Notes under the pieces: model-generated
The model's input: the letters and a program-made list of their open reading frames with translations, nothing else
The model's database searches: none
Told to the model about the DNA's origin: nothing
Shown: positions 16,602 to 44,188 of the stretch, piece by piece
Position numbering within the stretch: the first letter of the stretch is position 1
How the letters are laid out: each line of letters starts with the position of its first letter
DNA from: Ignavibacteriota bacterium
GTDB lineage: Bacteria > Bacteroidota > Ignavibacteria > UBA10030
Direction of reading: 5' to 3'
DNA: 64,000 nucleotides
Assembly (NCBI GenBank): GCA_963701295.1
Contig: OY969585.1
Coordinates: 1,728,001 to 1,792,000 of the forward strand
Made by a program: the position numbers and the translations under genes

Positions 16602-16750
16602 CTGTAATTAAACCTCTTTAATTCGTTAAACCGAATGTGATTTATCGGGACAAAGCGTTTCAACTCGAGATGTGGATGTAATATGCTGCAGTCTTTTTAA
16701 CGAAAGAGATTTCCATTGACGATTTCTATCTTCAAACATAGGACGTAAAA

Positions 16751-19072: not shown

Positions 19073-19094
19073 ATTACCCAAGAGAAAATAGACT

Positions 19095-20633: not shown

Positions 20634-20674
20634 AGAGAAAAACATCTTCTACATAAAATATTAGGAAAAAGACT

Positions 20675-22297
20675 ATGAAACAAAAATGCAGACTTGTTGT
20701 TTCAACTAGTATAGTGCTATTCTTCTTAATCACCGTACCTAAGGAAATATTTGCTGCTGATGGAACAATAAAAGCTAAAGAGACTCATCAAGTAATGATA
20801 GGTTTTGGTGCCTCTATTGCATGGGCCGATGATCAATTAACTACACATCCAGCAAAGGGTGAAATTTATAATTACATTTTTAAGGATCTCGGTTTGGATA
20901 TCCTGCGGATTCGAAATATGTATCGGAATAATCCATTGGACTTTGCACCAACGTTTGCTGAAATTGTTGATACAATGTATGCCCTTTCACCTCAGAGGCC
21001 GAAAATTCTTATTTCTTCATGGTCGCCCCCTGCTGATATAAAGAGTAATAATGACGTCGAAAATGGCGGAACATTGATAAAGCAAAATGGAAAATATGTT
21101 TATGGTGCATTTGCTCAATACTGGGTAGACGCCATAAATGCTTATAGAGCTATTGGTATTGATCCGGATTATATCACTATTCAAAATGAGCCAGATTTTT
21201 CGGCAACATGGGAATCATGTCTTTTCAACCCCACAGAAACATCAACTATTGCTGGCTATAATCGTGCATTGGATACTGTGTATATTGGACTGCAACAGTT
21301 GCAATCACCTCCAAAAATATTGGGTCCAGAGGTTTTGGGAATTGGCTATAGTGAATTCCAAAAATATGGGTCGTCTTTTAATCAGAGTCATCTTGATGGA
21401 TATGCGTATCATTTATATCACGGCGAATCTGATAATGTTAACGATAATCACAACCCTGATTTGTTTATCACGAATCTTACTACCATAGCAAACAGCTATC
21501 AGGGTAAACCGATATTTCAAACAGAATATGACCGTGGTGATTGGTTCAATACAGCCTGGTTGATGCACAACTGTTTAGTCTATGGAAATGTTTCAGCGTA
21601 TCTCTGGTGGGAATTGGTGTGGGGATCGGGCGGCAATCCCCTGATAGAAATGGAATCAGACACCTATACAATTACTAAATACTATTGGGCGTTCAGACAA
21701 TATTCAAAATATATTGATTCCGGTTATGAAAGGGTGACTGCATCAGTTAATGCAGATAGCCTCAGGATGTCCGCTTTCATTAATCCTGGCGGTAATAAGT
21801 TGACGGTAGTGGTGCTAAACATTGGGTCGCAGGCTCAATCGATGAATTTTGATATCCAAGATTTCAGCGTTGATAGCGGGATGGTTATTCGTACTTCTGA
21901 GACCGAATCGGGTGATACAATAAGTAATAGTTATGATGGCAAATCAGCATTGGATTTTCCTGTTCGTTCTATTACCACGCTCTCGTTTTCCGGTGCGTTG
22001 GCCACCAATGTCGACAATAAACCAGTAATGCCAGTAAAATTTTCATTATCTCAAAATTATCCTAATCCTTTTAATCCAACCACAACAATTGAATATTCTT
22101 TAGGAAGAGAAAGTTTCGTTCGACTAAAGATCTATGATGTTTTGGGCCGGGAAATAACAACATTGGTTCAGGAAAGAATGGCAGCAGGAAAACATACTGT
22201 TCAATTTGACGCAAAGGATATGAATTCAGGTATCTATTTCTATAAAATAATGGCGGGAGATTTTATTCAATCTAATAAAATGATGGTGATAAAATAA
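20675..22297 (+). CDS. GH30 (glucuronoxylanase-like) with T9SS C-terminal sorting domain
   Basis: Signal peptide; GFGAS, SWSPP, acid/base IQNEPD, nucleophile FQTEY and SAYLWW. CTD is LSQNYPNPFNPTTTI..GIYFYK..KMMVIK. Confidence 0.88.
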   Translation: MKQKCRLVVSTSIVLFFLITVPKEIFAADGTIKAKETHQVMIGFGASIAWADDQLTTHPAKGEIYNYIFKDLGLDILRIRNMYRNNPLDFAPTFAEIVDTMYALSPQRPKILISSWSPPADIKSNNDVENGGTLIKQNGKYVYGAFAQYWVDAINAYRAIGIDPDYITIQNEPDFSATWESCLFNPTETSTIAGYNRALDTVYIGLQQLQSPPKILGPEVLGIGYSEFQKYGSSFNQSHLDGYAYHLYHGESDNVNDNHNPDLFITNLTTIANSYQGKPIFQTEYDRGDWFNTAWLMHNCLVYGNVSAYLWWELVWGSGGNPLIEMESDTYTITKYYWAFRQYSKYIDSGYERVTASVNADSLRMSAFINPGGNKLTVVVLNIGSQAQSMNFDIQDFSVDSGMVIRTSETESGDTISNSYDGKSALDFPVRSITTLSFSGALATNVDNKPVMPVKFSLSQNYPNPFNPTTTIEYSLGRESFVRLKIYDVLGREITTLVQERMAAGKHTVQFDAKDMNSGIYFYKIMAGDFIQSNKMMVIK

Positions 22298-22444
22298 TAT
22301 CAAATGGTATTAGAGGCATGGATAATACGTCCATAAATTTTTTAGAAAAGCTCAATAAAAAAGATTGAACAATACAAAGCGATGAACGAATAAATAATTA
22401 TCCAATTAATAAACTAATTTCCAACAAACAATGGAGGTTGTAAA

Positions 22445-23584
22445 ATGAAAAACTTATTATTTAGTTTTTTCATGATAGTCTTGATCTTTACTTCTGGAAA
22501 AGCACAGGGCTTTATCACAATTGATGCCCAAAGGGATGCTTTTTTTGATGGCTTAACTAATCCTAATGATGGAAAAATATTTATACCATCAAGGGCTTAC
22601 CTGCCGGAAGATACCGGCAAATACGGACCTCCGTGGGGTGACGCAGATATTTCCGGAATAGTATGGACTGCATGGGACACTACATATCTATACTACTATG
22701 TTGAAGTAAAAGATAATATCATTATTGACAATCAGAAAGCTAATTGGTCAAATGATAAAATTGAACTTAAATTTGATCCGAATCCTACACTAAAATTGAC
22801 AGGACAGGGTAATTGTATTCAGGTCGGTATGACGGCATTAGACCGTGGTGATGCTCAGTTAGACACAGCAGTAGATAATTTGGACTTAGACCAGAAGATT
22901 GCTAATGGGAAAGAAATGATAGATACATCTGGAAACCCATTTTGGTCTACACCTAATGATTATGCACGTAGAGAAACTGCTGATGGTTATGTTTTAGAAT
23001 TCAGGCTTCCTTTCAAATATATTAATAAATCGAAAAATTGGCTTCGGCCTGTAGCAGTGGGTTTACAATTCGGAAGTGCGATAAATTTAAATGATAACGA
23101 TAGTACTGGAAGAATGAATGCTGTGAATTGGTCTGCTGGACATAAAGATGCAGTTTGGAATACTCCAAAGTACGATGGCACAGTAACGTTATTAGACGGC
23201 CATAAGTGTAAATATGAAGCCAAAAGCCTTCAAGACTCAACTATTGTTAATGATAGTGCTGCGGTTTGGTATTTTGGTGGCACACCATTCACATCCGTAA
23301 AATCTTTTAGTGGTACTCCAGAATCTTTCAATTTAATGCAGAATTATCCCAATCCATTTAATCCGACAACAACCATTAAATTCACGTTACCACAGCGCAG
23401 CGATGTCCGGATTGTCCTTATAAACGTGTTAGGACAAGTCTTGAAAGAAATCGCCAAGGGCAACTACAGTGCCGGCAGTCATCAGGTGACGTTGGATGCT
23501 TCGCGTCTTGCAAGTGGCATTTATTTCTACAAACTACAGGCAGGTTCATTGAGCGATACAAAGAAGTTAGTGCTTATGAAATAA
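22445..23584 (+). CDS. Non-catalytic CBM9/DOMON-like sugar-binding protein with T9SS CTD
   Basis: Signal peptide; WTAWDTTYLYYYVEVKDN..W.NDKIELKFD, GYVLEFRLPF and INLNDND resemble CBM9. CTD LMQNYPNPFNP. Strong RBS GGAGG. No catalytic domain recognised. Confidence 0.78.
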   Translation: MKNLLFSFFMIVLIFTSGKAQGFITIDAQRDAFFDGLTNPNDGKIFIPSRAYLPEDTGKYGPPWGDADISGIVWTAWDTTYLYYYVEVKDNIIIDNQKANWSNDKIELKFDPNPTLKLTGQGNCIQVGMTALDRGDAQLDTAVDNLDLDQKIANGKEMIDTSGNPFWSTPNDYARRETADGYVLEFRLPFKYINKSKNWLRPVAVGLQFGSAINLNDNDSTGRMNAVNWSAGHKDAVWNTPKYDGTVTLLDGHKCKYEAKSLQDSTIVNDSAAVWYFGGTPFTSVKSFSGTPESFNLMQNYPNPFNPTTTIKFTLPQRSDVRIVLINVLGQVLKEIAKGNYSAGSHQVTLDASRLASGIYFYKLQAGSLSDTKKLVLMK

Positions 23585-23973: not shown

Positions 23974-25479
23974 ATGATGAAAATTTTTAAATCGATATTC
24001 TGTATCAAGAGTTTTGCAGGGTTCCTGTACTGCATGAGTATTCCGCTTTTAGGACAAATGAAGTCTGTCATCCCTGCCGGCGGTTCTCTCGGTATAGAAA
24101 ACGGCAATGATGCGTTAGCTATAGTGGGCGAAAAAATAATTACGGTAAGAGATTTCAGGGAACGCAGTGAATTTACGGTTCGCCCTCAGAATTTTAAAGA
24201 CAAGAATATCACATTAAACAATTTAATTTTTGAAAAGATTCTTACCCTAGAAGCAGAACAAGAGGCGAAGTCTGCAGTACATCCTGGGATGCAGGCCATG
24301 CTAGATGGCATTAAAGAACAACAGATGCGGGCTCAGCTCTACTATGAGGTTGCTTATAACAAAGTGAAATTCAATTCCGCTGAATTGGAAAAAGCGTACA
24401 CGCTGTCCACTCGTGAATACGAACTCGAGTTTTATCGCTTACCGAATAAGAAGTTCGCATACAAAATTCAAACAGCGATCGATGCTGGACCTACACGAGC
24501 CGATTCCTTATTTAAGGAAGTGGAAGAGATTCTGGGAAAGAAACCTGTCCATAAAACAAAATTTGACGATAACGATGACGATGCTATTCATAAAGCATTG
24601 TACACGGAGGCGCTGGATCCGGGGAAGATTGTTGGACCTGTGAGACTCGGTGATGGCGGATATATCGTTATGAAAGTGTTGACATGGGTTGATTATCCTC
24701 TTATAAGCGGTGAAGAACAGCAAGCAAGGTGGAATAAAGTAGGGGACATTATCCAAAACCGAAAAGCAGAGCAGCAGTGGCGCTCCTACCAGGCAAGTGT
24801 CATGAAGGGGAAGCGATTAGTATTTGATAAGCATTCTTTTGATGTGTTATCGGCCTGGGCGATGGAAAATTATTATTCCCACAAACAAAACGATTCTCTG
24901 AATATTCACATTGCAGAAATTGAAGGAAAGAAACCGGAAATTGATTTTAACAACCCTTTCTTTACGCTCGATAAAAAAGTATGGACTCTAAAAGACTTTC
25001 GAAAAGTGCTTCGTACTCATCCCCTCGTCTATAGAACGACTGCGCTTGACAGTACAAATTTTCGGAAACAATTCAAATTGGCAATCATTGATTTGATGCG
25101 GGATCATTATTTGACACAGGCGGCTTATAAGCGTTCTTTGGACAAGCATGAAAACGTGAAAAATACAGTCGGAATGTGGAGAGATTCTTTTTTGGCAACG
25201 GAAAAAGCAAAGAGTATTGTTGATACGGGCGTAGCTCAGGGGATCGTCAAGAGAAACGATGAGCGCGGCTTATCGGAATTTTGGAATTCGCAAGTGATCA
25301 TATTGCAGCAGAAATATGGCAAATCGATCTGGATAAACCATCCTTTGCTGGATCGTCTTGCATTAACAAGAATTGATATGATTGCCTTAAAACCAGGTTT
25401 TCCCTATCCTCTTGAGGTCCCTCAATTCCCGACATTGATCGTTTCCGAGAATCTTGACTATGCGACACTTAAAAAATGA
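23974..25479 (+). CDS. SurA/parvulin-like periplasmic protein (putative foldase), xylan cassette
   Basis: Signal-like N-terminus. The LAIVGEKIITVRDF..LNNLIFEKILTLEA pattern resembles SurA/PrsA N-domains, and GKIVGPVRLGDGGYIVMKV resembles a degenerate rotamase. Parallels ORF 47568. Confidence 0.55.
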   Translation: MMKIFKSIFCIKSFAGFLYCMSIPLLGQMKSVIPAGGSLGIENGNDALAIVGEKIITVRDFRERSEFTVRPQNFKDKNITLNNLIFEKILTLEAEQEAKSAVHPGMQAMLDGIKEQQMRAQLYYEVAYNKVKFNSAELEKAYTLSTREYELEFYRLPNKKFAYKIQTAIDAGPTRADSLFKEVEEILGKKPVHKTKFDDNDDDAIHKALYTEALDPGKIVGPVRLGDGGYIVMKVLTWVDYPLISGEEQQARWNKVGDIIQNRKAEQQWRSYQASVMKGKRLVFDKHSFDVLSAWAMENYYSHKQNDSLNIHIAEIEGKKPEIDFNNPFFTLDKKVWTLKDFRKVLRTHPLVYRTTALDSTNFRKQFKLAIIDLMRDHYLTQAAYKRSLDKHENVKNTVGMWRDSFLATEKAKSIVDTGVAQGIVKRNDERGLSEFWNSQVIILQQKYGKSIWINHPLLDRLALTRIDMIALKPGFPYPLEVPQFPTLIVSENLDYATLKK

Positions 25480-25581
25480 TATTGAAGATAGATTACAGTA
25501 CTGACAAAGACATCAATAAGTTTGATTCATGTACATTGTTTTTTGATATAACTTATGGTAAACAAAGGAAGGGTTGTTAAA

Positions 25582-28569
25582 ATGAAAAAACTAACTACAA
25601 TCTTTTTGTCAATTTTCTTCCTCCTTGCTGCAAGTGCAAGTATGCTCTATGCTGGAGTAGCAGGAAAAATTTCTGGCAGGCTGATCGATAAAGCAACGCA
25701 AGAGCCATTAATAACGGCAAATGTCATCATTAAGGGAACCTCGCTAGGTGCATCAAGTGATATCGATGGAAGTTATTCGATATTAAATATTCCTCCTGGG
25801 GTCTATACTGTCAGTATATCCGTCGTTGGATATCGAAAGGTACAGATTGAAAATGTCCGTGTGAATATAGATCTTACGACTACCGTTGATGTCGCGCTTG
25901 AACCAGAAGCCGTTGAAATGGATGCTGTCGTTATTTCAGCGGAGAGACCTCTGGTGACAAAAGATATGACATCGTCTCTTTCAACCGTTACATCTGAGCA
26001 GATTCAAAATCTGCCGGTCGATAACATTGCACAAGTTCTGAGATTAAATGCGGGTATAGTCATGAGTGGAGGTCAGATTACGATTCGCGGCGGCAGGACG
26101 GGTGAAGTGGCATATTGGGTTGATGGTATTTCATCGACTGATGTCTATAATGGGACACAGGGTGTGACGGTGGAAAACTCTTCTATTCAGGAACTTCAGA
26201 TTGTAAGCGGTACCTTCAACTCTGAATACGGACAGGCAATGTCGGGTATTGTCAATATTGTCACGAAAGATGGCGGCAGCAATTATACCGGGCAGATAAA
26301 AATTTATGGAGGGAGTTACTTAAGCGGTGATGATGTGTTTAGTCTGTACAAACATCTTGTTACGGCGGAAAATCCTGTTGCCAATTCGAATGGGATTAAT
26401 ACAACACAGATCGTAAGCAGCGAAAAATATTATCCGTTGAAAAAAATAAATCCTCTTTATAGCGGAGAATTTACACTGAGCGGTCCGGTGCCTTTCTTGG
26501 AAAATAATTTAAAATTCTTTGCAAACGGTCGTTACTATTCAGACGATGGATATTTTTATGGGGCAAATTGGTACTTGCCAGATGGAGTTGCAGGTGATTC
26601 CTCTATAGTGACGATGAATCCATATCAGAATATCTCCGCCCAGGGAAAACTCACCTACAACTTAATGGGTGGCAATATACGGATGAGCTATGAGTTCTTC
26701 GGGAATAAGTGGAAGAGAGACAGGACTTACTATCCGTTTTCATCGAGCGATTTTCCTTACAATTTTAATGCTCATGATTATTTGTACGATCCGTATGGAT
26801 TGCCAAAATCCTTTGGCGATGCATACACTCACCTTTTTTCATTGAGTCATGTTTTGTCTTCATCAACCTTTTACGAACTGCGTGTCAGCAGATATCAATC
26901 AGAAATGAATCAATACGTATTTGAGAATCCAACACAAGCAGTAAGATATTTGGACAGTACAGGCACGGTCGATCCAAATGGTCCAGATGGCTATCTCCAA
27001 CCAAACAATAGTGGAGGTTATTCAGCACCCGCTTCCAACAGTTTCAATAACAAAGGTATGGATCCAACCCATACAAGCCGCAGTACGGCTTATTGGGCCG
27101 CAAAATTCGATCTTACCAGCCAGGTTAATAAATCTCACGAAATGAAATTCGGTGCAGAAGCAAGACTTCATGAACTCACATTAGATAGATATCAAATCGT
27201 GAGCGCAACGGATGCAAGCGGAACGATAATAACTCCATTTGTTCCGGCTGTGCCAAATCAAAGCAGCATTTACAGAAGTTTGTATGATAGAAAACCGCAA
27301 GAGTATTCTGCCTATGTGCAGGACAAAATGGAGTACAACCAAATCATCGTTAACATTGGATTGAGGTACGATTATTTCGATGCAAATGCATCAATGCTGA
27401 CAGATCCAACTGACCCTGATATATACTCACCAGTTAAACCTGAACACATCTATGCCGGATGGATCCCTTTACCAGACAGTTATTCCGGAACACTCGATCA
27501 ATGGATCGCAGATAACTTAGCAAACGGAACCTTCAGGGAATATACTCCCGATGAACGAAGAGCTTTTATGCAGCAAAAAGTCAGTGCCAAGATGGCTCTA
27601 AGCCCGCGGCTCGGCATTGCGTTCCCGATTACCGATAAAGGAGTTATCCATTTTTCCTATGGGCATTTCTTCCAAATTCCGCAATTCCAGTATCTCTATG
27701 CTAATCCCGATTTCAAAATCAGCAGCGGCAGCACTTCCAGTGCCACACTCTTTGGAAATCCAGATCTGAAACCTCAAAGGACTGTGATGTATGAACTTGG
27801 ATTGCAGCAACAGCTTTCTGATAACATTGGAATAGATGTGACAATGTTCTACAGAGATGTACGCGATTGGGTGGGAACAAGCAGTGTGCCAATTTCAGTA
27901 TATGGGGGAAGTGCGACGTATGCGATGTTTGTGAATAAAGACTATGAAAATGTGCGCGGAGTGACATTAAAATTCGAGAGACGAATGAGCAATAATTTTT
28001 CATTCCGTGCCGATTATACATACCAGATTGCTGATGGAACGTATTCTAATCCGACGGATGCCTTCAATGCGATATCCAGCAATCAAGCGCCAGTCTTAGC
28101 TCTCGTTCCTATGAATTGGGACCAGAGACATACTCTCAATGCGCAATTGATCTACAGTAATTCCGATTGGATTATTTCACTTATCGGCACATACTGGAGC
28201 GGACAGCCATACACGCCAAGTTTTCCCTCGAGTGAAGCGACAGGTTCCTCAGCAGTTACAGGCCTGACGACAAATAGCGAGAATATGCCAGACCAGAAAA
28301 ATATTGATTTAACAATCAGCAAAAAAATCCAAATGAGCCATTCTCTCTCTCTCGAATTTTTTATGAATATTTATAACTTACTCGATGAAAGAGATGCAAC
28401 GAATGTTTATTCCGACACAGGAAACCCGGATTACACGACAAACCCTCGGCGACTTTCGCAAGTATCATATAATTCAGATAGGGTAAGCACACCGGAAGAT
28501 AATATGAATCAACCCGCTTGGCATACTGCACCGCGCCAAATTCAACTTGGTATAACATTAGGATTCTAA
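25582..28569 (+). CDS. TonB-dependent receptor (non-SusC type) with N-terminal carboxypeptidase-regulatory-like domain, xylan cassette
   Basis: Signal peptide, plug IRGGRTGEVAYWVDG..IQELQIVSGTFNSEYGQAMSGIVNIVTK, NIGLRYDYF, GNPDLKP and a C-terminal Phe. Start re-called to ATG 25582. Confidence 0.9.
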   Translation: MKKLTTIFLSIFFLLAASASMLYAGVAGKISGRLIDKATQEPLITANVIIKGTSLGASSDIDGSYSILNIPPGVYTVSISVVGYRKVQIENVRVNIDLTTTVDVALEPEAVEMDAVVISAERPLVTKDMTSSLSTVTSEQIQNLPVDNIAQVLRLNAGIVMSGGQITIRGGRTGEVAYWVDGISSTDVYNGTQGVTVENSSIQELQIVSGTFNSEYGQAMSGIVNIVTKDGGSNYTGQIKIYGGSYLSGDDVFSLYKHLVTAENPVANSNGINTTQIVSSEKYYPLKKINPLYSGEFTLSGPVPFLENNLKFFANGRYYSDDGYFYGANWYLPDGVAGDSSIVTMNPYQNISAQGKLTYNLMGGNIRMSYEFFGNKWKRDRTYYPFSSSDFPYNFNAHDYLYDPYGLPKSFGDAYTHLFSLSHVLSSSTFYELRVSRYQSEMNQYVFENPTQAVRYLDSTGTVDPNGPDGYLQPNNSGGYSAPASNSFNNKGMDPTHTSRSTAYWAAKFDLTSQVNKSHEMKFGAEARLHELTLDRYQIVSATDASGTIITPFVPAVPNQSSIYRSLYDRKPQEYSAYVQDKMEYNQIIVNIGLRYDYFDANASMLTDPTDPDIYSPVKPEHIYAGWIPLPDSYSGTLDQWIADNLANGTFREYTPDERRAFMQQKVSAKMALSPRLGIAFPITDKGVIHFSYGHFFQIPQFQYLYANPDFKISSGSTSSATLFGNPDLKPQRTVMYELGLQQQLSDNIGIDVTMFYRDVRDWVGTSSVPISVYGGSATYAMFVNKDYENVRGVTLKFERRMSNNFSFRADYTYQIADGTYSNPTDAFNAISSNQAPVLALVPMNWDQRHTLNAQLIYSNSDWIISLIGTYWSGQPYTPSFPSSEATGSSAVTGLTTNSENMPDQKNIDLTISKKIQMSHSLSLEFFMNIYNLLDERDATNVYSDTGNPDYTTNPRRLSQVSYNSDRVSTPEDNMNQPAWHTAPRQIQLGITLGF

Positions 28570-28588: not shown

Positions 28589-31500
28589 ATGAAAAATAAA
28601 TTCTTTTATTCTATTTTTGCTGTCCTTTCATGGATTGGGTTATCCAATTCAATTGTGCAAGCCCAGATGCGATACCTTCATGGAGATGATCGAGAATACC
28701 GAATCGGAATGCATTCCGGGAATCAATTCAGGACAACTTTTTTCAATGATGGAACATGGGGTGGAAATACGAGCAATACACCAGGAATGAGCATTGTAAA
28801 GACTCAAATTGCTGGTGAATGGCCTATTAATTCAGGCCACTGGTACCTTATTGATGGAGATACTTTTGTCCTTTCGGAAGTTGCTGACAATTATGATCCG
28901 CTTGAACATTATTTCTTGGCAGACTCGGGTAAAGTGGGTAGAGTTCATCACATTCAGAGCACCGTCAAAGCTGCACCTGGAGGAGGTACTGTAGGTGATC
29001 AAGATCCAAACACTAAAAAGTGGTGGACTTTCTTACCGTTACCGGGATTTGCAAATCCAAGAGATCAGATCATTGCTATGGCAAAGGGAGACCAACAATG
29101 GTATGACGATGCAAAGTCAGCGGGATCCTGGCCTCTCTTCTGGCCAGATATTAGAGATCCACAAAACCCTTACAAAATATATTCCGCCGATGGGTGGGCT
29201 GGTTCCTGGAATGGATATTTTGGCAGAAATAAATTTAATGCTGATGAAGAGAGTTACTTTGTTGCCGATGATTATGCAAAACAGAAGTTCCCTTCGTTCA
29301 GGCCGGATACAACAGATGTACTTAGAGGCGGATTAGGCATACGAATGTATGTGAGAGGATTTCAATGGGCAAAAATGCCCGTACAGGATGCTTTATTTAT
29401 CGTGAGCGATCTGCAGAATATTGGAACCTATCAGCACAATAAAGTGGTGTTCGGATATAAGATTGGCAACAACATGGGTCAAACAAACGGTGGAGCCGAT
29501 GCAGGTGATGACGGCGGCAGTTATAGTATTGTTGATAATTTATGTTGGACGTGGGATCAAAACGGTCTTGGCGCTTCAGATTGGGGACCAACTCCTGTTG
29601 GAATATCAGGCGCCGCGCTTCTGGAGACCCCGGGTAATCCTTTTGATGGAATCGATAATGATAATGATGGAAACCCAAATAGTCCCAATTATGGTATGAA
29701 AAACAAAGAAACAGGTCCCGTGACGCTACATACCGTTAATGGACCACAAACATTTTATGCTGGTTCAGGGCCGACTATTTCAACGAATACGTTTGCACCG
29801 AAGGTGCTTGGACTTAACGACCAGATCGTATTGATTGATTACAAAGACCCACATTATAAGCGAACTGTTACAACGTTCAAACAGGCTCTTCTCGCTCAGG
29901 GCAAAACATTGGCCACGGATACTCTTCTCATTCCATTTGGTGGAATCACGTACAAGTTTTGGGTTGGAGATACATTGAAAGAAATCGGCGATAATTTATT
30001 CGATGATAATTTAAATGGTATCATTGATGAAAACAGAGGAGTTACAAATCCATCGACTGGAGTAACGACCTATCTGTATCTAGACCATAAGTACATTGAC
30101 TATTTGAACCCTGATGTAACCACAAATGGATCGCTGAATCCTCTTATTGATGAACGCAGGGATGATGGTATTGATAACAATGATAATTGGGATCCTGCTA
30201 AAGATGATGTTGGCCAGGATGGTTTAGGTCCTACAGATCTCGGTTACCCGGGGCCTGATATCGGAGAAGGTGACGGGAAGCCGACACCGGGAGAACCCCA
30301 TTTTGATAAAACAGATATCAATGAAAGCGACATGATAGGGTTGACGAGCTTTAATTTGTACCTATGGGCTCAGAAAGACCAGTTTGGAGACGGGACACAG
30401 CAAGATGATGAAGGTTTTTGGAATAGGCTTGCTCCAGGCTCTTTTTATGCCTACCCCAGTGCAGACAATGTCGAATTATTATTCGGTTCCGGATATTTCC
30501 CGTTGCCCCCGGGTGATCTTGAAAGAATTTCCTATGCGTTTATTGTTGTGAGCGGCCCTGCGGGCGGTTGGAAAGGCGGTTCTGGCGAAGTTGCACCACC
30601 TGATAATTTACTTTTGGAAAAGACCAATGTGCAATCGGCTTACGATCAAAATTATAATTTTGCCAAGGCTCCTTTTATACCTGCCGTTATAGCTGTTGCA
30701 GGTGATAAGAGAGTGACTTTATTTTGGGATGATATAGCAGAATCTTCTGTTGACGCAAACAATGTTGTAAATTTTGAGGGATACAAAATTTATCGTTCCA
30801 CAGATCCTGGCTGGAATGACATGACTCCAATTACCGACGGCCATGGTAACGTGGTAATGCGCCAACCGTTAGCACAGTATGATCTTGATGATACATATTC
30901 TGGCTATATTTCTGCAACTCCAAATACAGGAGTTCGTTTTTGGTTAGGGAGTAATACCGGTCTGAGACATTTTTATATCGATACAACTGTAACGAATGGA
31001 ACTACCTATTATTATGCAGTGACGTCGTACAACTTTGGCGATGTCAATAAGGGAATCGATCCTTCTGAATGCGTTAAATACGTTGCCGTTCAATCATCTG
31101 GCGATGTCGAAAAAGGGAAGAATGTGGTTGTCGTTCGACCGGAAGCACCTGCCGCAGGATATGTCCCAGCAAATTTTAAAGATTCAAAAGTCACAGCCTT
31201 ACCTGGTAGCACGGGTACAGGAGTAGCTGGTTATAAAATTTTGGATGATACTCGAATTAAGAATAGCCATACCTATCAAATCACATTCAAAGATACAGTC
31301 ACTGGTATAGCAAAAGGTTTAGCAGAATCGACAAAGAGTTTTACACTTACCGATATCACCGTGATAGACACTCCGAAAATTTTATTAAAGGATAACTCGT
31401 TTACGGGAGACAATGGAGGACTTCCGGTGACAGATGGTTTTCAGTTATCGTTCTCCAGTAATCCTGAAAAACTGAGCTATGATTCAGCAAGTTCTGGATG

Positions 31501-32311
31501 GAGTAGATCGGGTATTCCAGCATTCGAAATGAATCCATTTGCAGTGCCCAATATGCCAGTGAAGCTTATGGCTGGTGATTTTAAAATTATCTTTAGCGAT
31601 GTAGGCGTTAGTACTTCAAAACGATTTAAACGAGCTTCTACGATGCTCCCAGCAATACCGGTGAACTTCAAAATATATAATACAACAACAAATAAAGAAG
31701 TGGATTTTGCCTTTTATGAACTCGCCTATTTATTACCCAGTGAAGTAGCAGGTGACTCTGATAATTTTAATATAAATTTTAAAAATGGTAGATCCGATCA
31801 AATAATATTCTTAAATGATGGAGATTCAGTTGCAAGTTGGCAGGTTGACTTTGTGTATCCATCTCAAGGAGGTACCAGTATGCCTGGGCCAGGAGATAGC
31901 CTAACTCTTAAACTGAATAAACCATTTCTTTCTAACGATACGTTAATTTTTACAACTCTTGCTTCAAGCATTGATAATGAAATGGCAAAAACAGATATGG
32001 GAAAGATAAAAGTAGTTCCTAATCCATATATCGTAACAAATACTTGGGAGCCCCATAATCCTTATTCTAACGGGCGCGGAGAACGGCAACTTCATTTTAT
32101 TCATCTACCTGCAAAATGCACGATAAAAATATTCAATGTAAGGGGTCAATTAGTGAATACGATTGAACATAATAATCCGCTTAATGATGGTACTGAGATA
32201 TGGAATATGTTGTCAAAGGATAATCTAGAAATCTCTTATGGTATTTATATATTTCATGTAGGAGCAGCAGGTGTAGGTGAGAAAATTGGAAAATTTGTGG
32301 TGCTCAAATAG
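28589..32311 (+). CDS. Large secreted hypothetical protein (1240 aa) with Asp-rich Ca-binding-like motifs, an FN3-like domain and a variant T9SS-like CTD
   Basis: Signal peptide; DGIDNDNDG, DDNLNGIIDE and DDGIDNNDNW motifs; AVAGDKRVTLFWD..FEGYKIYRS..YYYAVTSY; C-terminus IKVVPNPY..FIHLP..WNMLSK..GIYIFHV..KFVVLK. Clear paralogue of 40328-44176. Confidence 0.85.
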   Translation: MKNKFFYSIFAVLSWIGLSNSIVQAQMRYLHGDDREYRIGMHSGNQFRTTFFNDGTWGGNTSNTPGMSIVKTQIAGEWPINSGHWYLIDGDTFVLSEVADNYDPLEHYFLADSGKVGRVHHIQSTVKAAPGGGTVGDQDPNTKKWWTFLPLPGFANPRDQIIAMAKGDQQWYDDAKSAGSWPLFWPDIRDPQNPYKIYSADGWAGSWNGYFGRNKFNADEESYFVADDYAKQKFPSFRPDTTDVLRGGLGIRMYVRGFQWAKMPVQDALFIVSDLQNIGTYQHNKVVFGYKIGNNMGQTNGGADAGDDGGSYSIVDNLCWTWDQNGLGASDWGPTPVGISGAALLETPGNPFDGIDNDNDGNPNSPNYGMKNKETGPVTLHTVNGPQTFYAGSGPTISTNTFAPKVLGLNDQIVLIDYKDPHYKRTVTTFKQALLAQGKTLATDTLLIPFGGITYKFWVGDTLKEIGDNLFDDNLNGIIDENRGVTNPSTGVTTYLYLDHKYIDYLNPDVTTNGSLNPLIDERRDDGIDNNDNWDPAKDDVGQDGLGPTDLGYPGPDIGEGDGKPTPGEPHFDKTDINESDMIGLTSFNLYLWAQKDQFGDGTQQDDEGFWNRLAPGSFYAYPSADNVELLFGSGYFPLPPGDLERISYAFIVVSGPAGGWKGGSGEVAPPDNLLLEKTNVQSAYDQNYNFAKAPFIPAVIAVAGDKRVTLFWDDIAESSVDANNVVNFEGYKIYRSTDPGWNDMTPITDGHGNVVMRQPLAQYDLDDTYSGYISATPNTGVRFWLGSNTGLRHFYIDTTVTNGTTYYYAVTSYNFGDVNKGIDPSECVKYVAVQSSGDVEKGKNVVVVRPEAPAAGYVPANFKDSKVTALPGSTGTGVAGYKILDDTRIKNSHTYQITFKDTVTGIAKGLAESTKSFTLTDITVIDTPKILLKDNSFTGDNGGLPVTDGFQLSFSSNPEKLSYDSASSGWSRSGIPAFEMNPFAVPNMPVKLMAGDFKIIFSDVGVSTSKRFKRASTMLPAIPVNFKIYNTTTNKEVDFAFYELAYLLPSEVAGDSDNFNINFKNGRSDQIIFLNDGDSVASWQVDFVYPSQGGTSMPGPGDSLTLKLNKPFLSNDTLIFTTLASSIDNEMAKTDMGKIKVVPNPYIVTNTWEPHNPYSNGRGERQLHFIHLPAKCTIKIFNVRGQLVNTIEHNNPLNDGTEIWNMLSKDNLEISYGIYIFHVGAAGVGEKIGKFVVLK

Positions 32312-32328: not shown

Positions 32329-33348
32329 ATGAGAAAATATATAAGTGTTATTCTAGGAATGCTGCTGATAGCGCAGATCAGTGTCTATGCACAGGGCGTG
32401 ACGAAAGTTGGAACAACAGCAGCTGGTTTTTTAGGTATAGATATGGGACCGCGAGGTACGGCCATGGGCAGTGCCTATGTGTCGGTAGCAAATGATGTCA
32501 GTGCGATGTATTGGAACCCAGCAGGGATTGCTCGGATCGACGGATTTGAGGCAAGCTTCACCAATACGAAGTGGATCGCAGACCTATCATTGAACTATGC
32601 AGGTGCGGTGTTGCCATTAGGAGATGTCGGGAACATTGGTATCAACGCGACATTTCTAACGATGGATCAAATGGAGCGAACGACCATCGAGCAGCCGGAT
32701 GGGACGGGGGAATTTTTCGACGCGGGCTGCTATGCGTTTGGGTTGAGTTATGCCCGCAACTTGACGAACCAATTTGCCATCGGCATAAATGCCAAATATA
32801 TCAACGAGCGGTATTACCACAGCAACGCTACTGGGTTTGCTTTGGATGTGGGTGCACTATTTGACACAAAATTCAATGGGTTAATGCTGGGCATGAGCAT
32901 CTCAAACTACGGAACGAAGATGCAGTTGGATGGCGAGGATTTTCGTGTGCAGCACGATATTGATGTGAGTGTCTCAGGGAATAATCCTAACATCAATGCG
33001 AATCTGGCGACCGATCCATATGACCTGCCGTTATTGTTCCGTGTCGGGATATCTATGGATGTCCTCAAAGGTGCAGCAAACAGTAACCTGATCATTTCCG
33101 TTGATGCGCTGCATCCAAGTGATGATGTGGAATCGGTAAACGTTGGCGGTGAATATGTTTTTAATAACATATTGGCGCTTAGGGCCGGCTACAAAGGATT
33201 GTTCGCAAAAGATTCTGAACAGGGTTTTAATTTTGGTGGTGGGGTATGGTATACGATAGGAACAACCACTTTACATTTTGATTATGCATACATTAATTTC
33301 GGTATCTTGAATTCTGTACATATGTTTAGTATCGGTTTGGGACTTTAA
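32329..33348 (+). CDS. PorV/PorQ-like (FadL-fold, UPF0164-like) outer-membrane beta-barrel, xylan cassette
   Basis: KVGTTAAGFLGIDMGPRGTAMGSAY..AMYWNPAG is the PorV-like N-terminal signature. Amphipathic strands, LRAGY and DYAY follow. Confidence 0.82.
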   Translation: MRKYISVILGMLLIAQISVYAQGVTKVGTTAAGFLGIDMGPRGTAMGSAYVSVANDVSAMYWNPAGIARIDGFEASFTNTKWIADLSLNYAGAVLPLGDVGNIGINATFLTMDQMERTTIEQPDGTGEFFDAGCYAFGLSYARNLTNQFAIGINAKYINERYYHSNATGFALDVGALFDTKFNGLMLGMSISNYGTKMQLDGEDFRVQHDIDVSVSGNNPNINANLATDPYDLPLLFRVGISMDVLKGAANSNLIISVDALHPSDDVESVNVGGEYVFNNILALRAGYKGLFAKDSEQGFNFGGGVWYTIGTTTLHFDYAYINFGILNSVHMFSIGLGL

Positions 33349-34591: not shown

Positions 34592-36115
34592 ATGAAGTTT
34601 CCCCGTAGTAGCGGAATATTATTGCATCCAACATCGTTACCCGGGCCCTATGGTTCAGGTGACCTTGGTGCTTCAGCATATCATTTTGTCGATTGGTTGG
34701 TTTCGGCGGGTCAAACTCTTTGGCAAATGCTTCCTTTAGGTCCTGCAGGTATTGCAAACTCACCATATATGTCACTTTCTGCTTTTGCAGGAAATCCCTT
34801 ACTCATTGATCTCCAGGAATTATGCACACTCGGTTGGCTAACTCAAGAAGATCTTGCAAGTAAATCGGTTGAAGAAGGTACGAAAATCGATTATCAATCT
34901 GCAACACAATTTAGGATGGCCACTCTTGTAAAGGCATCGAACATATTTTTTATTCAAAGTGGAATGGAGGATCGAAAGCTATTTGACAAGTACTGTATGG
35001 CTGAAAAATCATGGCTTGAAGATTATGCACTCTTTCAGGCATTGAATCAAAAATATTGTCAGATGGAATGGTCATCATGGGATTACGATCTCGTACATCG
35101 TACATCAGCCGCATTGAAGAATGCTCGAAAGGAACTTGAAGACCTTATCAACTTTCACAAATTTACTCAATGGTGTTTTGCGCGTCAATGGCACAGTTTG
35201 AAGAAATACGCTAATGATCGAAACATAAAACTTGTTGGTGATATTCCCATTTTTGTAGCTCATCATAGTGCAGATGTTTGGTCAAATCCAGGTGATTTTT
35301 TCTTAGATGAAAAGAGGCTACCTACCATTGTTGCAGGTGTTCCTCCAGATTATTTCAGTGAGGACGGACAACGCTGGGGCAATCCATTATATAGATGGAA
35401 TGTCATGAAAAGGGAACAATACAAATGGTGGATCGAACGTTTCAGAAAAACATTTGAATTATTCGATATACTTCGTATTGACCACTTTAGAGGATTCGAG
35501 GCATACTGGGAAATTCCGGCTAAAGAAAAGACAGCACGAATTGGTCGATGGGTCAAAGGTCCCGGTGAAGATCTTTTTAAAACAGTAAAACAAAAATTGG
35601 GCAATTTGCCTATTATAGCCGAAGATCTTGGAGTTGTAACACAGGAAGTCGTAACACTCCGAAAGAAATTCAAATTCCCGGGAATGAAAGTATTACAGTT
35701 TGCATTCTCTACAGATCAGAATGACGCTTTCCTTCCGCATAATTATGACAGGAATTGTGTTGTGTACACGGGAACACATGATAATGACACGACTATAGGA
35801 TGGTATGAGAAAGCATCAGAACATGAACGTGACTTTATCAGGCGGTATTGTAAAACAGATGGACGCAAAATTAATTGGGATTTGATCAAACTATCTCTTC
35901 AATCCATTGCCGAGATGGCCATTCTTCCATTTCAAGATATATTAGATCTCGGAAGTGAGGGAAGGATGAACTTCCCTGGTACTATCGATGGGAATTGGGA
36001 ATGGCGATTTACATGGAACGAAATTAAGCCATGGATGACAGAACAGTTGTTTGAGTTGACTACTCTTTATGGACGATGTAACTCTGATAAGATAAAACTT
36101 CAACAAAAAAAATAG
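34592..36115 (+). CDS. malQ: 4-alpha-glucanotransferase (amylomaltase, GH77)
   Basis: RSSGILLHPTSLPG, WQMLPLGP, SPY, GDIPIFV, GVPPDYFSEDGQRWGNP, RIDHFRGF, IAEDLG, YTGTHDNDT and RMNFPG. Confidence 0.97.
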   Translation: MKFPRSSGILLHPTSLPGPYGSGDLGASAYHFVDWLVSAGQTLWQMLPLGPAGIANSPYMSLSAFAGNPLLIDLQELCTLGWLTQEDLASKSVEEGTKIDYQSATQFRMATLVKASNIFFIQSGMEDRKLFDKYCMAEKSWLEDYALFQALNQKYCQMEWSSWDYDLVHRTSAALKNARKELEDLINFHKFTQWCFARQWHSLKKYANDRNIKLVGDIPIFVAHHSADVWSNPGDFFLDEKRLPTIVAGVPPDYFSEDGQRWGNPLYRWNVMKREQYKWWIERFRKTFELFDILRIDHFRGFEAYWEIPAKEKTARIGRWVKGPGEDLFKTVKQKLGNLPIIAEDLGVVTQEVVTLRKKFKFPGMKVLQFAFSTDQNDAFLPHNYDRNCVVYTGTHDNDTTIGWYEKASEHERDFIRRYCKTDGRKINWDLIKLSLQSIAEMAILPFQDILDLGSEGRMNFPGTIDGNWEWRFTWNEIKPWMTEQLFELTTLYGRCNSDKIKLQQKK

Positions 36116-36305
36116 TTTCACTGCAATATTAACTAAAATGAGAAAATGATAAGTAGTATATAGTCGACTGCTGTTAAAAGATATAAAAACTCCGCTTTTT
36201 CTAATAAATAAACAAATTTTGTACCATTGGTTCTGACGATGCACGCTCTTCCATCAGAAGAATACAGATTCCTCAAGAGATCTTTAAAATAATTTGAAAT
36301 AATAC

Positions 36306-36349
36306 TTGACTCTTAAAAAGAAAATCCGGAATTTTTGGAAGCGCTTCCA
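36306..36349 (+). promoter_or_regulatory. Promoter region (-35 TTGACT) with perfect LacI-type operator TGGAAGCGCTTCCA (36336-36349)
   Basis: 14-bp perfect palindrome with central CG, 21 bp upstream of the lacI ATG. Confidence 0.8.
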
Positions 36350-36370
36350 CAAAAATTGAACGTTGAGATC

Positions 36371-37405
36371 ATGACGCCGACAATTTACGATATCGCTAAG
36401 AAAGCAAAAGTGGGAATAGGGACTGTTTCGCGTGTGTTCAACAACCATCCTAGTGTTTCCAAAGAGACAAGGAATCGTGTTCTTCACATTGCGAACAGGA
36501 TGGATTATCACCCTCATCCGTATGCACGAGGTCTTGCTAGTAAACGAACAAACTCAATCCTTGCGATTATCCCGTACTTTACAACATTCTTCTTTGTTGA
36601 GATTTTACAAGCAGTCCAGGCCATTCTTGCAGAATCAGAATGCGACCTTATTCTTCACGGAGTCACTCACCCAGATCATGCTGAAGGGACGTTAAAGAAA
36701 AATACCGTGCGGGGCAGAGTGGATGGGATGCTTATTTTTTCACTGAAGATGCCGGATAAATTTGCTCGTGAATATGTTAATTCACGTGTTCCTGTAGTTC
36801 TTGTTGATACGTATCATCCAGATTTTGATTCATTTACAGTCGAGAATGTCCGAGGTGCATATATTGCTACGAATTATCTCATATCACTCGGACATACACG
36901 TATTGGAATCCTGAACGCGAATCTCGAGAGCCCTCCAGCACGTGAGCGTTTAAAAGGTTTTAAAAAGGCATTGAGAGAAGCACAGATTCCAATTGAACCA
37001 TGTTTGATAAAATATAGCAGGTCGGCTCATCTTGATGGGTTTACACATGAAGACGGGTATGAGATGATGAAACAATTCCTTTCTCTCGGCGCACGCAGAC
37101 CAACTGCTGTTTTTGTGACAAGTGATATTCAAGCATCCGGCGCATTAGAAGCAATGAATGAGAAGGACGTTCGCTGCCCAGAAGACATTACTGTGGTCGG
37201 CTTTGATGATATTGAATTAGCACGACATATAGGATTGACCACCATGAGGCAACCTATGGTGGAGATGGGGTCGCTTGCGGTTCAACGTTTGTTTGAACGA
37301 ATGAAAGATCCAAACTTAAAGCCTATCTTTAAAACGTTTCTTCCAACGCTTGTTGTTCGTCGAACATCGTGTTCGATTCACCCTGTAAGAAAAATGATTC
37401 AATAG
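36371..37405 (+). CDS. LacI-family regulator (probable maltose/starch-locus repressor)
   Basis: HTH TIYDIAKKAKVGIGTVSRVFN and PEDITVVGFDD..GLTTMRQP. Start re-called to ATG 36371 because the upstream TTG lies in the operator. Confidence 0.95.
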   Translation: MTPTIYDIAKKAKVGIGTVSRVFNNHPSVSKETRNRVLHIANRMDYHPHPYARGLASKRTNSILAIIPYFTTFFFVEILQAVQAILAESECDLILHGVTHPDHAEGTLKKNTVRGRVDGMLIFSLKMPDKFAREYVNSRVPVVLVDTYHPDFDSFTVENVRGAYIATNYLISLGHTRIGILNANLESPPARERLKGFKKALREAQIPIEPCLIKYSRSAHLDGFTHEDGYEMMKQFLSLGARRPTAVFVTSDIQASGALEAMNEKDVRCPEDITVVGFDDIELARHIGLTTMRQPMVEMGSLAVQRLFERMKDPNLKPIFKTFLPTLVVRRTSCSIHPVRKMIQ

Positions 37406-37478
37406 TAAACGGAATGAGTATAGATTTTTATTCATACAACAAATTGATAGGAAAAAACAGGAAATAAGGAGAACCATT

Positions 37479-40325
37479 TTGATACGCATATTGACTCCTC
37501 TCTTGCTGGTATCGCTCCTACTTTCTTTCGCGCTTGGTGGATCTACAGGAAAGATTGCAGGAGTCGTAAAAGATAAAAAATCGGGCGATCCAATTGTTGG
37601 GGCAAACGTAAGAATTGAAGGCACTAATTTTGGAGGGGCTACCGATTTTGATGGTAAGTACTTCATCATTAATGTTCCTCCCGATGATTATAGTTTAAAT
37701 GTAACGATGATAGGTTACACACCTTCCAAAATAACAGGTGTACGCGTCAGGGGCGATCTGACTACTGCTATAGATGTTGAACTCTCCGAGACGATTCTGC
37801 AAGTTGGCCAAGAAGTTGTTGTTGTTGCTGAAAGACCGCTCGTTCAAAAAGACCTTACAGCGAAAACGGCTATTGTAAGCGGGAACGAGATATCTGTGAT
37901 GCCGGTGACAGAAATTAGTTCGGTCATTTCGATGCAGGCGGGATTTGTTGCGGGTAGTCTTCGAGGCGGGCGTGTTGGTGAAGTAGCGTATTGGATTGAT
38001 GGAGTACCTGTGATGGATGCATATGATGGAAGTCAAGTTGTTGAGGTGAATAAAAGTCTTGTACAGGAACTTCAAGTAATATCAGGAGCATTTAATGCCG
38101 AATATGGACAGGCGATGTCAGGTATTGTGAACATCTCATCCAAAGAAGGAGGTGAGAAGTTTACAGGCGGCTTAGGAATTTATGGCGGCGATTATCTTCC
38201 AACAAATGATGGAATTTTTCCGGGCGAAAACTTTAAGTACAATAACATACGAAATATCGAAGGGAATTTAAGCGGTCCTCTTTTTACCAATGATCTTACA
38301 TTCTTTGCTAATGCTCGATATATTTATTTCAACGGATATGAAAAGGGTTATCGGAGATTCAATCCATGGAATCTCTCTCAAGATGTACAACTTCCATCAG
38401 GAACTGATACGTTAGTATCTGTGGTCCCGGGCGGATTGGGAGATAGCTCTGTTGTTCCCATGGACTGGAGTAAACGATCTTATGCTCAGGGTAAACTGAC
38501 ATGGCATATCTCTTCACTGATGAAGCTTTCGGTAAATTATATTTACGATAATAGAATAAATAAAAAGTTTGACCCAAATAATGACCGGATTTATTTCTAT
38601 AACCCGGATGGGAAGGGAAATGAATATAATCTGAGTAACACATTGATTTTTCAATTTAACCATTCTCTCAGTCCGAGCACTTTCTATACAATTGGAGGAT
38701 CCGTTTTTTTAAAAGACTATAAGTACTATTTATATGATTTACAATACAAAGACTCAACAACAGCCCAGGGGGATCATATTAAATTAGAAGTTGTGGATCC
38801 CTATGGTCCTCATTATGTAGATCCCCAATTGTCAGTTGCACTTCCATATAGTTTCATGACTGGTGGTACAGATCTCAATCGATCTCATCGTTCTACAGAA
38901 ACGGGACTTCTCAAGTTTGATTTGACCAGTCAAATTGATGGGATGAATATGATTAAATTCGGTGTAGAGTATCGTTCACACATTATTCAAAATGAAAGCA
39001 TTACCTTGATCAAAGCTGGTTCACAAACGGGGTTCGATTATGTGAATGTTCCACAGTCAGTTGTCTATATTCGAACAGAAATCCCAGATATCACAGCCCC
39101 CGGACACGATTACTATGAGCATCATCCAAAAGAGTTTTCCTCATATATCCAGGATAAAATGGAATATAAGAATGTCATTGTTAATGTCGGATTGAGGTTT
39201 GATTACTTTAATCCGGATGGTCAGGTGTTGAATGATTCGCATCCAGATCCCAATGATCCTCTTCATTATATGTATACTGTCGATGATCCGAGTATTGACG
39301 CTCCAATACGTGTTGATCATCTTAATATGAGTCTTCAAGATCGAGAAGCTTTTTGGTACAAACAGGCATCAATAAAGTACGCCGTAAGCCCGCGTTTAGG
39401 AGTTTCTTTCCCGATTACAGACAGAGGAATTGTTCATTTCTCGTATGGTCATTTTTTCCAGATTCCACATTTTGAAATACTCTACGAAAATCCTAGATTT
39501 AAAATCAGTCAAGCTACCTCGGATAACGCGGGAACAATGGGTAATGCTGACCTCAATCCAGAACTAACTGTGAGTGCGGAACTTGGTGTGCAGCAACAGT
39601 TATCGGATGATATCGCTTTTGACATGACAGCATATATGCGCGATATTCGAGGGCTCAGTGGAACACAGGGCGATGCCATCCATATCTTTAGTGGAGGACA
39701 GTATTACCAATATACCAATAGTGACTTTGGAATAGTTAAAGGTATCGTATTAACAATAGATAAAAAGTTTTCAAATAGTATCACCGCACGGATAGATTAT
39801 ACATATCAGATTGCATCCGGAACTGCATCCGATCCTCAGCAAGCTCAAAAGGCAAAGGCTGGTGGAGCGCTTCCTGATGTTGAGATGGTTCCTTTGAATT
39901 GGGATCAACGGCATACTCTCAATATCTCATTAAATTATTCAATGAATAATTGGGGTATAAGTTCTATCATTCAGTATGGTTCTGGAAAACCGTATACTCC
40001 TGCACTTCAGTACAGTAATATGGTGTCCACTTTGGTTACAAATAGTCAAATCCAACCACCGACTTTTGATTGTGATCTTCGCGCATATTACGAGATTAAT
40101 TTTAAGCCTGTAAAGATGGTGTTTTTCACGCGCGTATTTAATCTGTTTGATACCAGGAACCAGACGAATGTCTATCCTTCCACCGGTCGTTCCGATTATT
40201 CTCGTGATGCGGATATTGCGAGAACAACTTCAATGGTTGTAAATACCGTAGACCAATGGTTCACTGATCCTACAAGGTACTCAGAACCGCGCCGTGTTGA
40301 ATTTGGTTTGAATCTGGAGTTTTAA
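37479..40325 (+). CDS. TonB-dependent receptor (non-SusC type), starch cassette
   Basis: TTG start after RBS AAGGAG; signal peptide; LRGGRVGEVAYWIDG..VQELQVISGAFNAEYGQAMSGIVNI; SPRLGVSFPITD; C-terminal Phe. Paralogue of 25582-28569. Confidence 0.9.
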   Translation: MIRILTPLLLVSLLLSFALGGSTGKIAGVVKDKKSGDPIVGANVRIEGTNFGGATDFDGKYFIINVPPDDYSLNVTMIGYTPSKITGVRVRGDLTTAIDVELSETILQVGQEVVVVAERPLVQKDLTAKTAIVSGNEISVMPVTEISSVISMQAGFVAGSLRGGRVGEVAYWIDGVPVMDAYDGSQVVEVNKSLVQELQVISGAFNAEYGQAMSGIVNISSKEGGEKFTGGLGIYGGDYLPTNDGIFPGENFKYNNIRNIEGNLSGPLFTNDLTFFANARYIYFNGYEKGYRRFNPWNLSQDVQLPSGTDTLVSVVPGGLGDSSVVPMDWSKRSYAQGKLTWHISSLMKLSVNYIYDNRINKKFDPNNDRIYFYNPDGKGNEYNLSNTLIFQFNHSLSPSTFYTIGGSVFLKDYKYYLYDLQYKDSTTAQGDHIKLEVVDPYGPHYVDPQLSVALPYSFMTGGTDLNRSHRSTETGLLKFDLTSQIDGMNMIKFGVEYRSHIIQNESITLIKAGSQTGFDYVNVPQSVVYIRTEIPDITAPGHDYYEHHPKEFSSYIQDKMEYKNVIVNVGLRFDYFNPDGQVLNDSHPDPNDPLHYMYTVDDPSIDAPIRVDHLNMSLQDREAFWYKQASIKYAVSPRLGVSFPITDRGIVHFSYGHFFQIPHFEILYENPRFKISQATSDNAGTMGNADLNPELTVSAELGVQQQLSDDIAFDMTAYMRDIRGLSGTQGDAIHIFSGGQYYQYTNSDFGIVKGIVLTIDKKFSNSITARIDYTYQIASGTASDPQQAQKAKAGGALPDVEMVPLNWDQRHTLNISLNYSMNNWGISSIIQYGSGKPYTPALQYSNMVSTLVTNSQIQPPTFDCDLRAYYEINFKPVKMVFFTRVFNLFDTRNQTNVYPSTGRSDYSRDADIARTTSMVVNTVDQWFTDPTRYSEPRRVEFGLNLEF

Positions 40326-40327
40326 TT

Positions 40328-44176: not shown

Positions 44177-44188
44177 GCGGAGACGGTT

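Follow-up and report, generated by a model that had tools for sequence, protein, structure and literature searches.

A TonB-dependent receptor, a variant-tailed giant protein and a private PorV-family barrel form a conserved gene triad in polysaccharide loci of Ignavibacteria

Introduction

What is the role of a protein of 1240 amino acids (aa) that matches no known family and is encoded directly behind a TonB-dependent receptor? The question is raised by a gene at positions 28589..32311 of the forward strand in a stretch of 64,000 nucleotides (nt) from an Ignavibacteriota bacterium (assembly GCA_963701295.1, contig OY969585.1, positions 1,728,001 to 1,792,000), hereafter the window. A first-pass annotation, made from the letters alone, described the product, here giant A, as a candidate replacement for SusD: a calcium-stabilised surface scaffold that caps the receptor. 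According to the available text of PMC10576277, susCD genes are scarce in the polysaccharide gene clusters of Ignavibacteriales.

We find giant A flanked by two partner genes in a conserved triad that is located in polysaccharide gene clusters. The triad consists of a receptor, a cargo with a variant type IX secretion system (T9SS) tail, plus a barrel of the PorV family that is private to the locus. Giant A does not belong to the SusD family. We lean towards the reading that it is a glycan-capture protein, exported by the T9SS and kept next to the receptor by a private PorV that tethers it.

Results

Both open reading frames announced by the first-pass annotation are present, that of giant A and that of its paralogue giant B (40328..44176, 1282 aa); these and all features below lie on the forward strand. 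The two proteins are 33% identical over 1386 columns (BLASTP, E 1e-164), and all nine sequence blocks said to be shared were matched in each. Upstream lie TonB-dependent receptors A (25555..28569) and B (37479..40325), which score 63.9 and 62.7 bits with the SusC profile TIGR04056, against a cut-off of 368; receptor A is thus not a SusC. Directly after each giant comes a gene of the PorV/PorQ family that the annotation had left unmentioned, barrel A at 32329..33348 and barrel B at 44189..45223, both recognised by profile NF033709 (203 bits for barrel B, cut-off 90). A profile of the private barrel matches PorV of Flavobacterium johnsoniae (6h3i, E 1e-13), which places it with PorV/PorQ and not with PorP/SprF.

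Giant A has a Sec signal peptide ending in VQA-Q. Its first cysteine is residue 319, so that no lipobox Cys is available; a loose lipobox pattern occurs in 4 of 163 giant homologues. Pfam and NCBIfam returned no match for the protein at E 0.01, and a sequence search of the PDB returned none. In the Atlas, whole giant A found unnamed clusters only, and aa 27-700 found no usable named match. Among 7992 candidates scored, 2227 are homologous at E ≤0.001; those with names are hypothetical proteins, mainly from Ignavibacteria and KSB1, and the Atlas clusters extend the family, with few records, to WOR-3 and Fidelibacterota. Promoter and terminator scans stayed at chance level.

The genome (3.64 Mb, 99% complete) contains ten triads: the cargo is a giant in four of them and, in the other six, a shorter, second-class protein that has the linker helix, the fibronectin type III (FnIII) domain and the tail in common with the giants. 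Every protein found with the variant tail (9/9) is followed by a PorV-family gene, against none of the 99 proteins with an ordinary NYPNPFNP tail. Because the tail profile was built from giants, the five second-class matches are the independent part of this count; the tenth cargo was dropped by the end filter of the tail scan and matches in a separate comparison. Two other proteins with atypical tails precede a PorV-family gene, namely PorU and the product at C1:2670529. Housekeeping PorU and PorV stand together elsewhere in the genome, apart from the triads.

The arrangement extends well beyond this organism. In a sample of 121 genomes of the phylum, the giant core occurs in 49, and we examined 120 stretches around 159 giant matches, together with 3 and 80 loci from further searches. 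A TonB receptor lies no more than 300 nt upstream of the giant in 59/65, 65/80 and 54/61 cases of three locus sets, and within 2.5 kb in another 4, 2 and 4; 14 giants have no room for it on their contig and 4 lack it. For the PorV gene, the same distance holds in 63/65, 64/80 and 59/61 cases; 12 misses have no room on the contig and 8 were flagged absent, two of these being slightly further away and two truncated. In L017, L020, L087, L139, L155, L156 and L169 the gene order is receptor-PorV-giant, and PorV is still adjacent.

The tail type of the giant tracks the private barrel. Among 194 complete giants, 187 combine the variant tail with a PorV gene within 500 nt, five carry the tail without PorV (three at contig ends, one a 97.5% duplicate next to a full triad, and L077), and the two with an ordinary tail (L168:4850-8368 and L182:1966-5532) have neither PorV nor receptor. 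These two come from one genus and probably reflect a single event. A broken third giant copy in L115 likewise has an ordinary tail and no PorV after it. The 97.5% identical second copy, L054:11599-15396, is found 4.4 kb from the full triad and has no receptor or PorV of its own.

The three partners are also inherited together. Distance matrices of 66 triads correlate with r 0.88 for receptor and giant, 0.76 for giant and PorV and 0.84 for receptor and PorV, and 1000 partner swaps within genomes never gave more than r 0.60. Gene order and co-inheritance therefore agree with the earlier description of giant A as a non-SusD partner of a TonB receptor in glycan loci.

The variant tail (VVPNPY...KFVVLK, aa 1139-1240, 32003..32308) folds into seven strands at aa 1141-1238. 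Its closest match is the tail of PorZ (5m11, Z 11.3, root-mean-square deviation (rmsd) 2.3, 91 aligned). Giant A has the Sec signal, the C-terminal seven-stranded Ig-like domain and the last-strand lysine of a type A cargo. This residue, K1235 (position -6), is Lys or Arg in 156/163 homologues, and the terminal K is kept in 160/163. The check with TIGR04183 and TIGR04131 that had been proposed for the tails came out mixed: with TIGR04183 (cut-off 23), tail A scores 21.3 bits and giant B 24.5 as a whole protein, or 17.2 for the tail alone, and TIGR04131 is not among the listed matches. The type B tail profile CHU_C gives 15.1 and 19.1 bits, below its cut-off of 27. Profile scores and fold match bear out the non-canonical C-terminal domain of the first-pass annotation. 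The motifs I.VVPNPY, FIHLP and SK.NL of the pattern it gave were matched in both giants, the remainder being read from the BLASTP alignment. It had contrasted this pattern with the NYPNPFNP tail of four nearby proteins, all carbohydrate-active enzymes (CAZymes) or bearers of carbohydrate-binding modules (CBMs). The tail is indeed present in all four (genes starting at 20675, 22445, 45378 and 49438; TIGR04183 34-54 bits), but Pfam gives no CAZyme or CBM match for 45378, so that the CAZyme/CBM label holds for three.

We modelled giant A with AlphaFold2 (aa 41-1240, 64 alignment rows; pLDDT 85.4, pTM 0.76). The model is rich in β-strands and has eight short helices. A galactose-mutarotase-like β-supersandwich makes up its core (aa 41-346 and 587-690); the closest match is 8rf9 (Z 19.5, rmsd 3.3, 259 aligned), and the N-terminal domains of GH94, GH15 and GH65 enzymes come next. 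By model and fold search, the first part of the sandwich spans aa 27-346 (28667..29626) and its final strands, with a linker helix, aa 587-692 (30347..30664). Between them, at aa 347-586 (29627..30346), Asp-rich loops surround an optional β insert of about 100 residues (aa 366-465) that is missing from many clades. An FnIII domain with long loops follows at aa 693-858 (30665..31162; aa 692-853 by the fold comparison, Z 9.0-9.1, rmsd 1.9-2.5, 91-97 aligned), and then two variable β domains at aa 859-1138 (31163..32002). Modelled separately, these reach a pLDDT of 93; the best fold match for aa 857-1138 is only Z 7.6 (FlgL), and no CBM is found among the matches, one being still possible. A receptor-giant fusion was sought among 5079 longer candidates and none was found, the four matches being FnIII repeats, which makes for weak evidence. 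Giant paralogue C of the same genome (L003:3411-6872) bears an additional N-terminal choice-of-anchor D domain.

The Asp-rich insertion of giant A is ordered, spans 240 residues and contains 14 acidic positions conserved at 90% or more. In 163 homologues we count, on average, 2.3 DxDxDG-like motifs per protein and never fewer than 1; shuffled sequences give 0.41. The strong conservation of these loops thus upholds part of the earlier claim of Ca-binding motifs; judged from the motifs, calcium binding itself is likely.

To see which partners may touch, we analysed residue covariation in 107 paired triads, and in 163 triads by mean-field direct coupling analysis (DCA). The four top giant-PorV pairs of the smaller set all connect the tail with PorV 113-132. 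In the DCA, pair 1219/132 ranks first (z 10.0), with 1235/113, 1221/83 and 1233/84 also present amid some noise pairs. The covarying positions of PorV A, 83-84, 113 and 132, fall, in the alignment, next to Asn87 and Phe115 of F. johnsoniae PorV; the carbonyls of these two residues bind the conserved T9SS-tail lysine according to the available text of PMC10994853. We infer that K1235 of the giant corresponds to that lysine. Together with the analogy to PorZ-PorQ, the covariation makes binding between the tail and the private barrel highly probable.

The top receptor-PorV pair, 827/197 (z 10.2), is a charge pair: 70 triads have minus/plus, 31 plus/minus, 4 like charges and 58 a neutral side. Its charges swapped at least seven times on the tree; the runner-up among 898 pairs has two swaps, and the like-charge control none. 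Under a neighbour-swap null its score drops to 5.8, while clade-driven pairs stay up. In triad A the pair is receptor D827 (28033-28035) and PorV K197 (32917-32919). This one repeatedly swapped pair suggests that receptor and private barrel are in contact, which we consider rather probable.

If the giant were a true lid instead, its conserved core would dock on the loops of the receptor and open and close as SusD does, with PorV as a mere shuttle or passive anchor. Receptor and giant do show the tightest co-inheritance of the three (r 0.88), and some of their top pairs connect receptor loops 773-831 with sandwich positions 56-89 and 293-295. These pairs, however, belong to a clade-specific clique, giant positions 56, 60, 88, 89, 126, 293, 295 and 632 covarying as one, and shared substrate or ancestry accounts for them. 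No receptor-giant pair rises above control (at most three charge swaps, the control also reaching three). The signals found are giant-PorV and PorV-receptor, and the earlier proposal that the conserved core docks on the receptor barrel is not borne out.

The distribution of SusD bears on the same question. SusD is not matched in this genome by three profiles whose controls were positive, and none of the 20 genomes with at least eight SusD matches has a giant, as a lid that takes the place of SusD might predict. These SusD-rich genomes are mostly of another lineage, so the anticorrelation is not independent. A strict exclusion of SusD by the giant is ruled out, since PF07980 is found in 29 of the 49 giant-positive genomes, with at most seven matches each. 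The label of SusD replacement therefore stands as far as a non-SusD partner beside a receptor in a genome without SusD is concerned, and falls as a strict rule. Overall, we regard the true lid as unlikely.

The T9SS is represented in this genome by SprA (775 bits, split in two frames in the assembly), PorU (958 bits) and PorV (260 bits), and SprA occurs in 48 of the 49 giant-positive genomes. Of the 121 genomes, 66 have SprA and no detectable GldM. The contrasts in SprA, GldM and SusD among these genomes run along lineages and do not count as independent tests.

The loci differ in their predicted substrates. Triad A stands in a xylan-type context (6040..23584) of GH43, glucuronoyl esterase, GH3, a GPH symporter, and GH30 and CBM9 proteins with ordinary tails. 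The context of triad B (34592..62004) is of the α-glucan type, with GH77, a LacI regulator, three GH13, GH57-CBM20 and MFS transporters. Right after PorV B, at 45378-47489, an ordinary-tail protein of 703 aa is encoded in which VTF/VMFRVNM-type segments recur; it has no CAZyme match in Pfam and is a candidate starch-binding accessory. The locus of paralogue C contains GH16, GH5, GH3 and GH30. A scan of 152 of the 215 nearest neighbours of loci L015-L074 found a CAZyme in 24 loci. Clusters cut on receptor and PorV alone proved uniform in the class of neighbouring CAZyme: GH16/GH3/GH2 (with paralogue C), GH144/GH94, GH10 (with giant A), GH26, GH13 and GH66. The receptor-free giant copies have GH2, GH5 and CBM35 genes as neighbours; the triads most closely related to them lie by GH26.

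Using eight such clusters of at least six members, defined without the giant, we searched for clade-specific positions, fixed within clusters and different between them. Of 33 positions, 29 belong to the sandwich, which makes up 308 of the 839 columns, and most of them to its first part. The variable β domains (196 columns) contribute no such position and drift even inside clusters. This distribution speaks against the idea that the variable parts set glycan specificity.

Could the giant be a surface enzyme of a new family, with an active site in the supersandwich, structural calcium loops and a PorV tether, feeding the receptor as SusG does? The structures nearest to it in fold are domains from glycoside hydrolases, phosphorylases and lyases, including a GH174 fucanase (9k1g, Z 13.9); residues D219, E221, D228, R256 and E346 of the sandwich are invariant; and receptor-free copies with ordinary tails persist among GH2, GH5 and CBM35 genes. 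The top fold matches, however, are accessory sandwiches. In GH94, GH65 and GH15 enzymes a catalytic (α/α)6 barrel comes after the supersandwich; in giant A one helix and the FnIII domain follow it, and the model contains no helical barrel. Aldose 1-epimerase has a catalytic His and Glu conserved in its sandwich, and no His of the giant sandwich is conserved at 50% or more in 163 rows. Moreover, this one family occurs across xylan, α-glucan, β-glucan and mannan loci, where dedicated hydrolases are already encoded. No known enzyme family matched and no catalytic barrel was modelled, in line with the first-pass annotation, which had recognised no catalytic motif. A new enzyme thus appears improbable, slightly more so than the lid; fold and context make glycan binding without catalysis a fairly probable function.

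Several neighbouring genes recur. A SurA/rotamase-like gene, a frequent accessory, lies upstream of triad A (23974..25479), in locus B (47535..49391) and by the remaining giant loci of the genome (G000:C1:2794535-2796313 and 2847364-2849223), and is possibly a dedicated periplasmic chaperone. The second-class cargoes (G000:C1 2010761, 2281137, 2508043, 2872061, 3103019 and 3112498) measure 650-870 aa, with one near 1150 aa. Five of them are followed by a gene of 410-450 aa, in two cases with an IPT/TIG domain, and one has CBM5/12 repeats. No receptor accompanies the 516-aa atypical-tail protein at G000:C1:2668671-2672079 (L011), which is followed by two genes of the PorV/PorQ family; this may be the PorZ/PorQ equivalent. 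Frame splits, probably due to assembly indels, affect SprA, two of the second-class cargoes and a receptor (G000:C1:3470808-3477759, 2010761-2014214, 2508043-2510504 and 2874333-2877581).

Discussion

We now propose a working scheme for the triad. After Sec export the giant would pass the SprA translocon and be picked up by its private PorV, to which the variant tail would stay bound uncleaved; PorZ and PorU retain their tails according to the available text of PMC10947112 and PMC11285876. The barrel would dock against the co-encoded receptor. The core supersandwich could then capture glycan, made available as oligosaccharides by the ordinary-tail hydrolases of the locus, and hand it over to the receptor.

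Several observations weigh against this scheme. SprA is frame-split in this very assembly. No GldL, GldM or GldN was matched here, in a search that had no positive control for GldL and GldN, despite PorU, PorV and some 100 proteins with ordinary tails; the GldM profile matches 29 of the 121 genomes, all 29 without a giant and thus none of the 49 giant-positive ones, where a divergent motor could escape it. SusD coexists with the giant in the genomes counted above. L077, the sole true exception to the linkage of tail and barrel, has a receptor and the variant tail and no adjacent PorV, and L168 and L182 keep the giant body without a receptor in a mannan-type locus. The five invariant sandwich residues could be catalytic. 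The charge pair 827/197 was chosen post hoc and ranks 12 in the mean-field DCA, and its sign test gives p ~0.06 on six independent pairs. Triad A has D-K at these positions; triads B, C and D have S-N, S-K and R-T, and the second-class triads show no charge pair of this type. The pair 767/118 and the size-compensation pair 746/90 were rejected as receptor-PorV contacts: they do not drop under the neighbour-swap null and represent clade signal. Pair 1141/118 falls under that null only from 8.7 to 7.0. Finally, between receptor and giant no pair exceeds its control.

As the least probable alternative, giant and PorV might serve the receptor as a structural or assembly factor, like BamG-BamH for BAM, or be a co-regulated adhesin, with no glycan hand-over. 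BAM does have a FadL-family barrel that holds a partner at the surface next to a large barrel (available text of PMC12611786), and a SurA-like gene accompanies 30 of the 60 loci L015-L074 and all four giants here; but clade-specific residues concentrate in a sandwich resembling those of sugar enzymes, receptor-free copies have kept to a mannan locus, as have the triads nearest to them, and the private barrels score 15-25 bits against the BamG cut-off of 250.

Glycan capture by a PorV-tethered giant, the reading that we favour, can be set beside known systems. As in SusC/SusD and the utilisomes of Bacteroidia, a TonB receptor is followed by a co-inherited surface partner amid polysaccharide loci, and clades track substrate. 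The triad receptor, in contrast, is not SusC, and the giant is twice as long as SusD, all-β instead of an α-helical tetratricopeptide repeat protein, not a lipoprotein, and equipped with a T9SS-type tail and its own barrel.

PorZ-PorQ and PorU-PorV of Porphyromonas gingivalis resemble it in combining an atypical tail of about 100 residues, uncleaved in these pairs, with a dedicated PorV-family barrel (available text of PMC10947112 and PMC11285876). They are single-copy parts of the secretion machine, whereas the triads form ten paralogous pairs per genome, each with a nutrient receptor; their bodies are a propeller or a sortase, that of the giant a supersandwich. An ordinary type A cargo of the T9SS relies on the shared PorV and on cleavage by PorU, and the private pairing of the giant suggests otherwise. 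Type B cargoes, in the available text of PMC9143113 and PMC12618676, are likewise linked to the gene of their own surface-anchoring shuttle. That shuttle is PorP/SprF, however, and the barrel linked to the giant is of the PorV family; the giant tail is type A-like and scores under the cut-off for type B. The type B cargoes known so far are adhesins, and the available text of PMC12618676 nowhere uses the word TonB.

The supersandwich domains of GH94, GH65, GH15, GH116 and aldose 1-epimerase have the fold of the giant core over about 260 residues (Z 12-19.5) at 7-12% identity. The giant differs from those enzymes in its lack of a catalytic helical barrel and of a conserved His, in its 240-residue Asp-rich insertion, and in the FnIII domain and T9SS tail that follow. 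In the literature searched, which left subscription papers and supplements outside, we found no description of the triad. By analogy, the giant would be SusD-like in position and PorZ-PorQ-like in anchoring, and a member of neither group.

More tentatively, the triad may represent a third kind of outer-membrane glycan importer in non-Bacteroidia of the phylum. A paralogue of the T9SS shuttle would act as a permanent adaptor packed on a TonB receptor and hold a 130-kDa capture protein over the pore; tail, adaptor and receptor would be matched per locus, and export would pass through SprA without a recognisable GldLM motor. The residues named here make tests specific: K1235 of the tail, 113, 132 and 197 of PorV, 827 of the receptor, and 56, 88, 89 and 293-295 of the sandwich.

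The triad is a concrete candidate for glycan capture in Ignavibacteriales; of the 121 genomes sampled from the phylum 49 have it, and homologues of the giant number more than 2,200. It would supply these lineages with a SusCD-like marker for predicting loci and their substrates. If the proposed scheme is true, type IX secretion is linked to nutrient import, and PorV paralogues gain a role as receptor adaptors.

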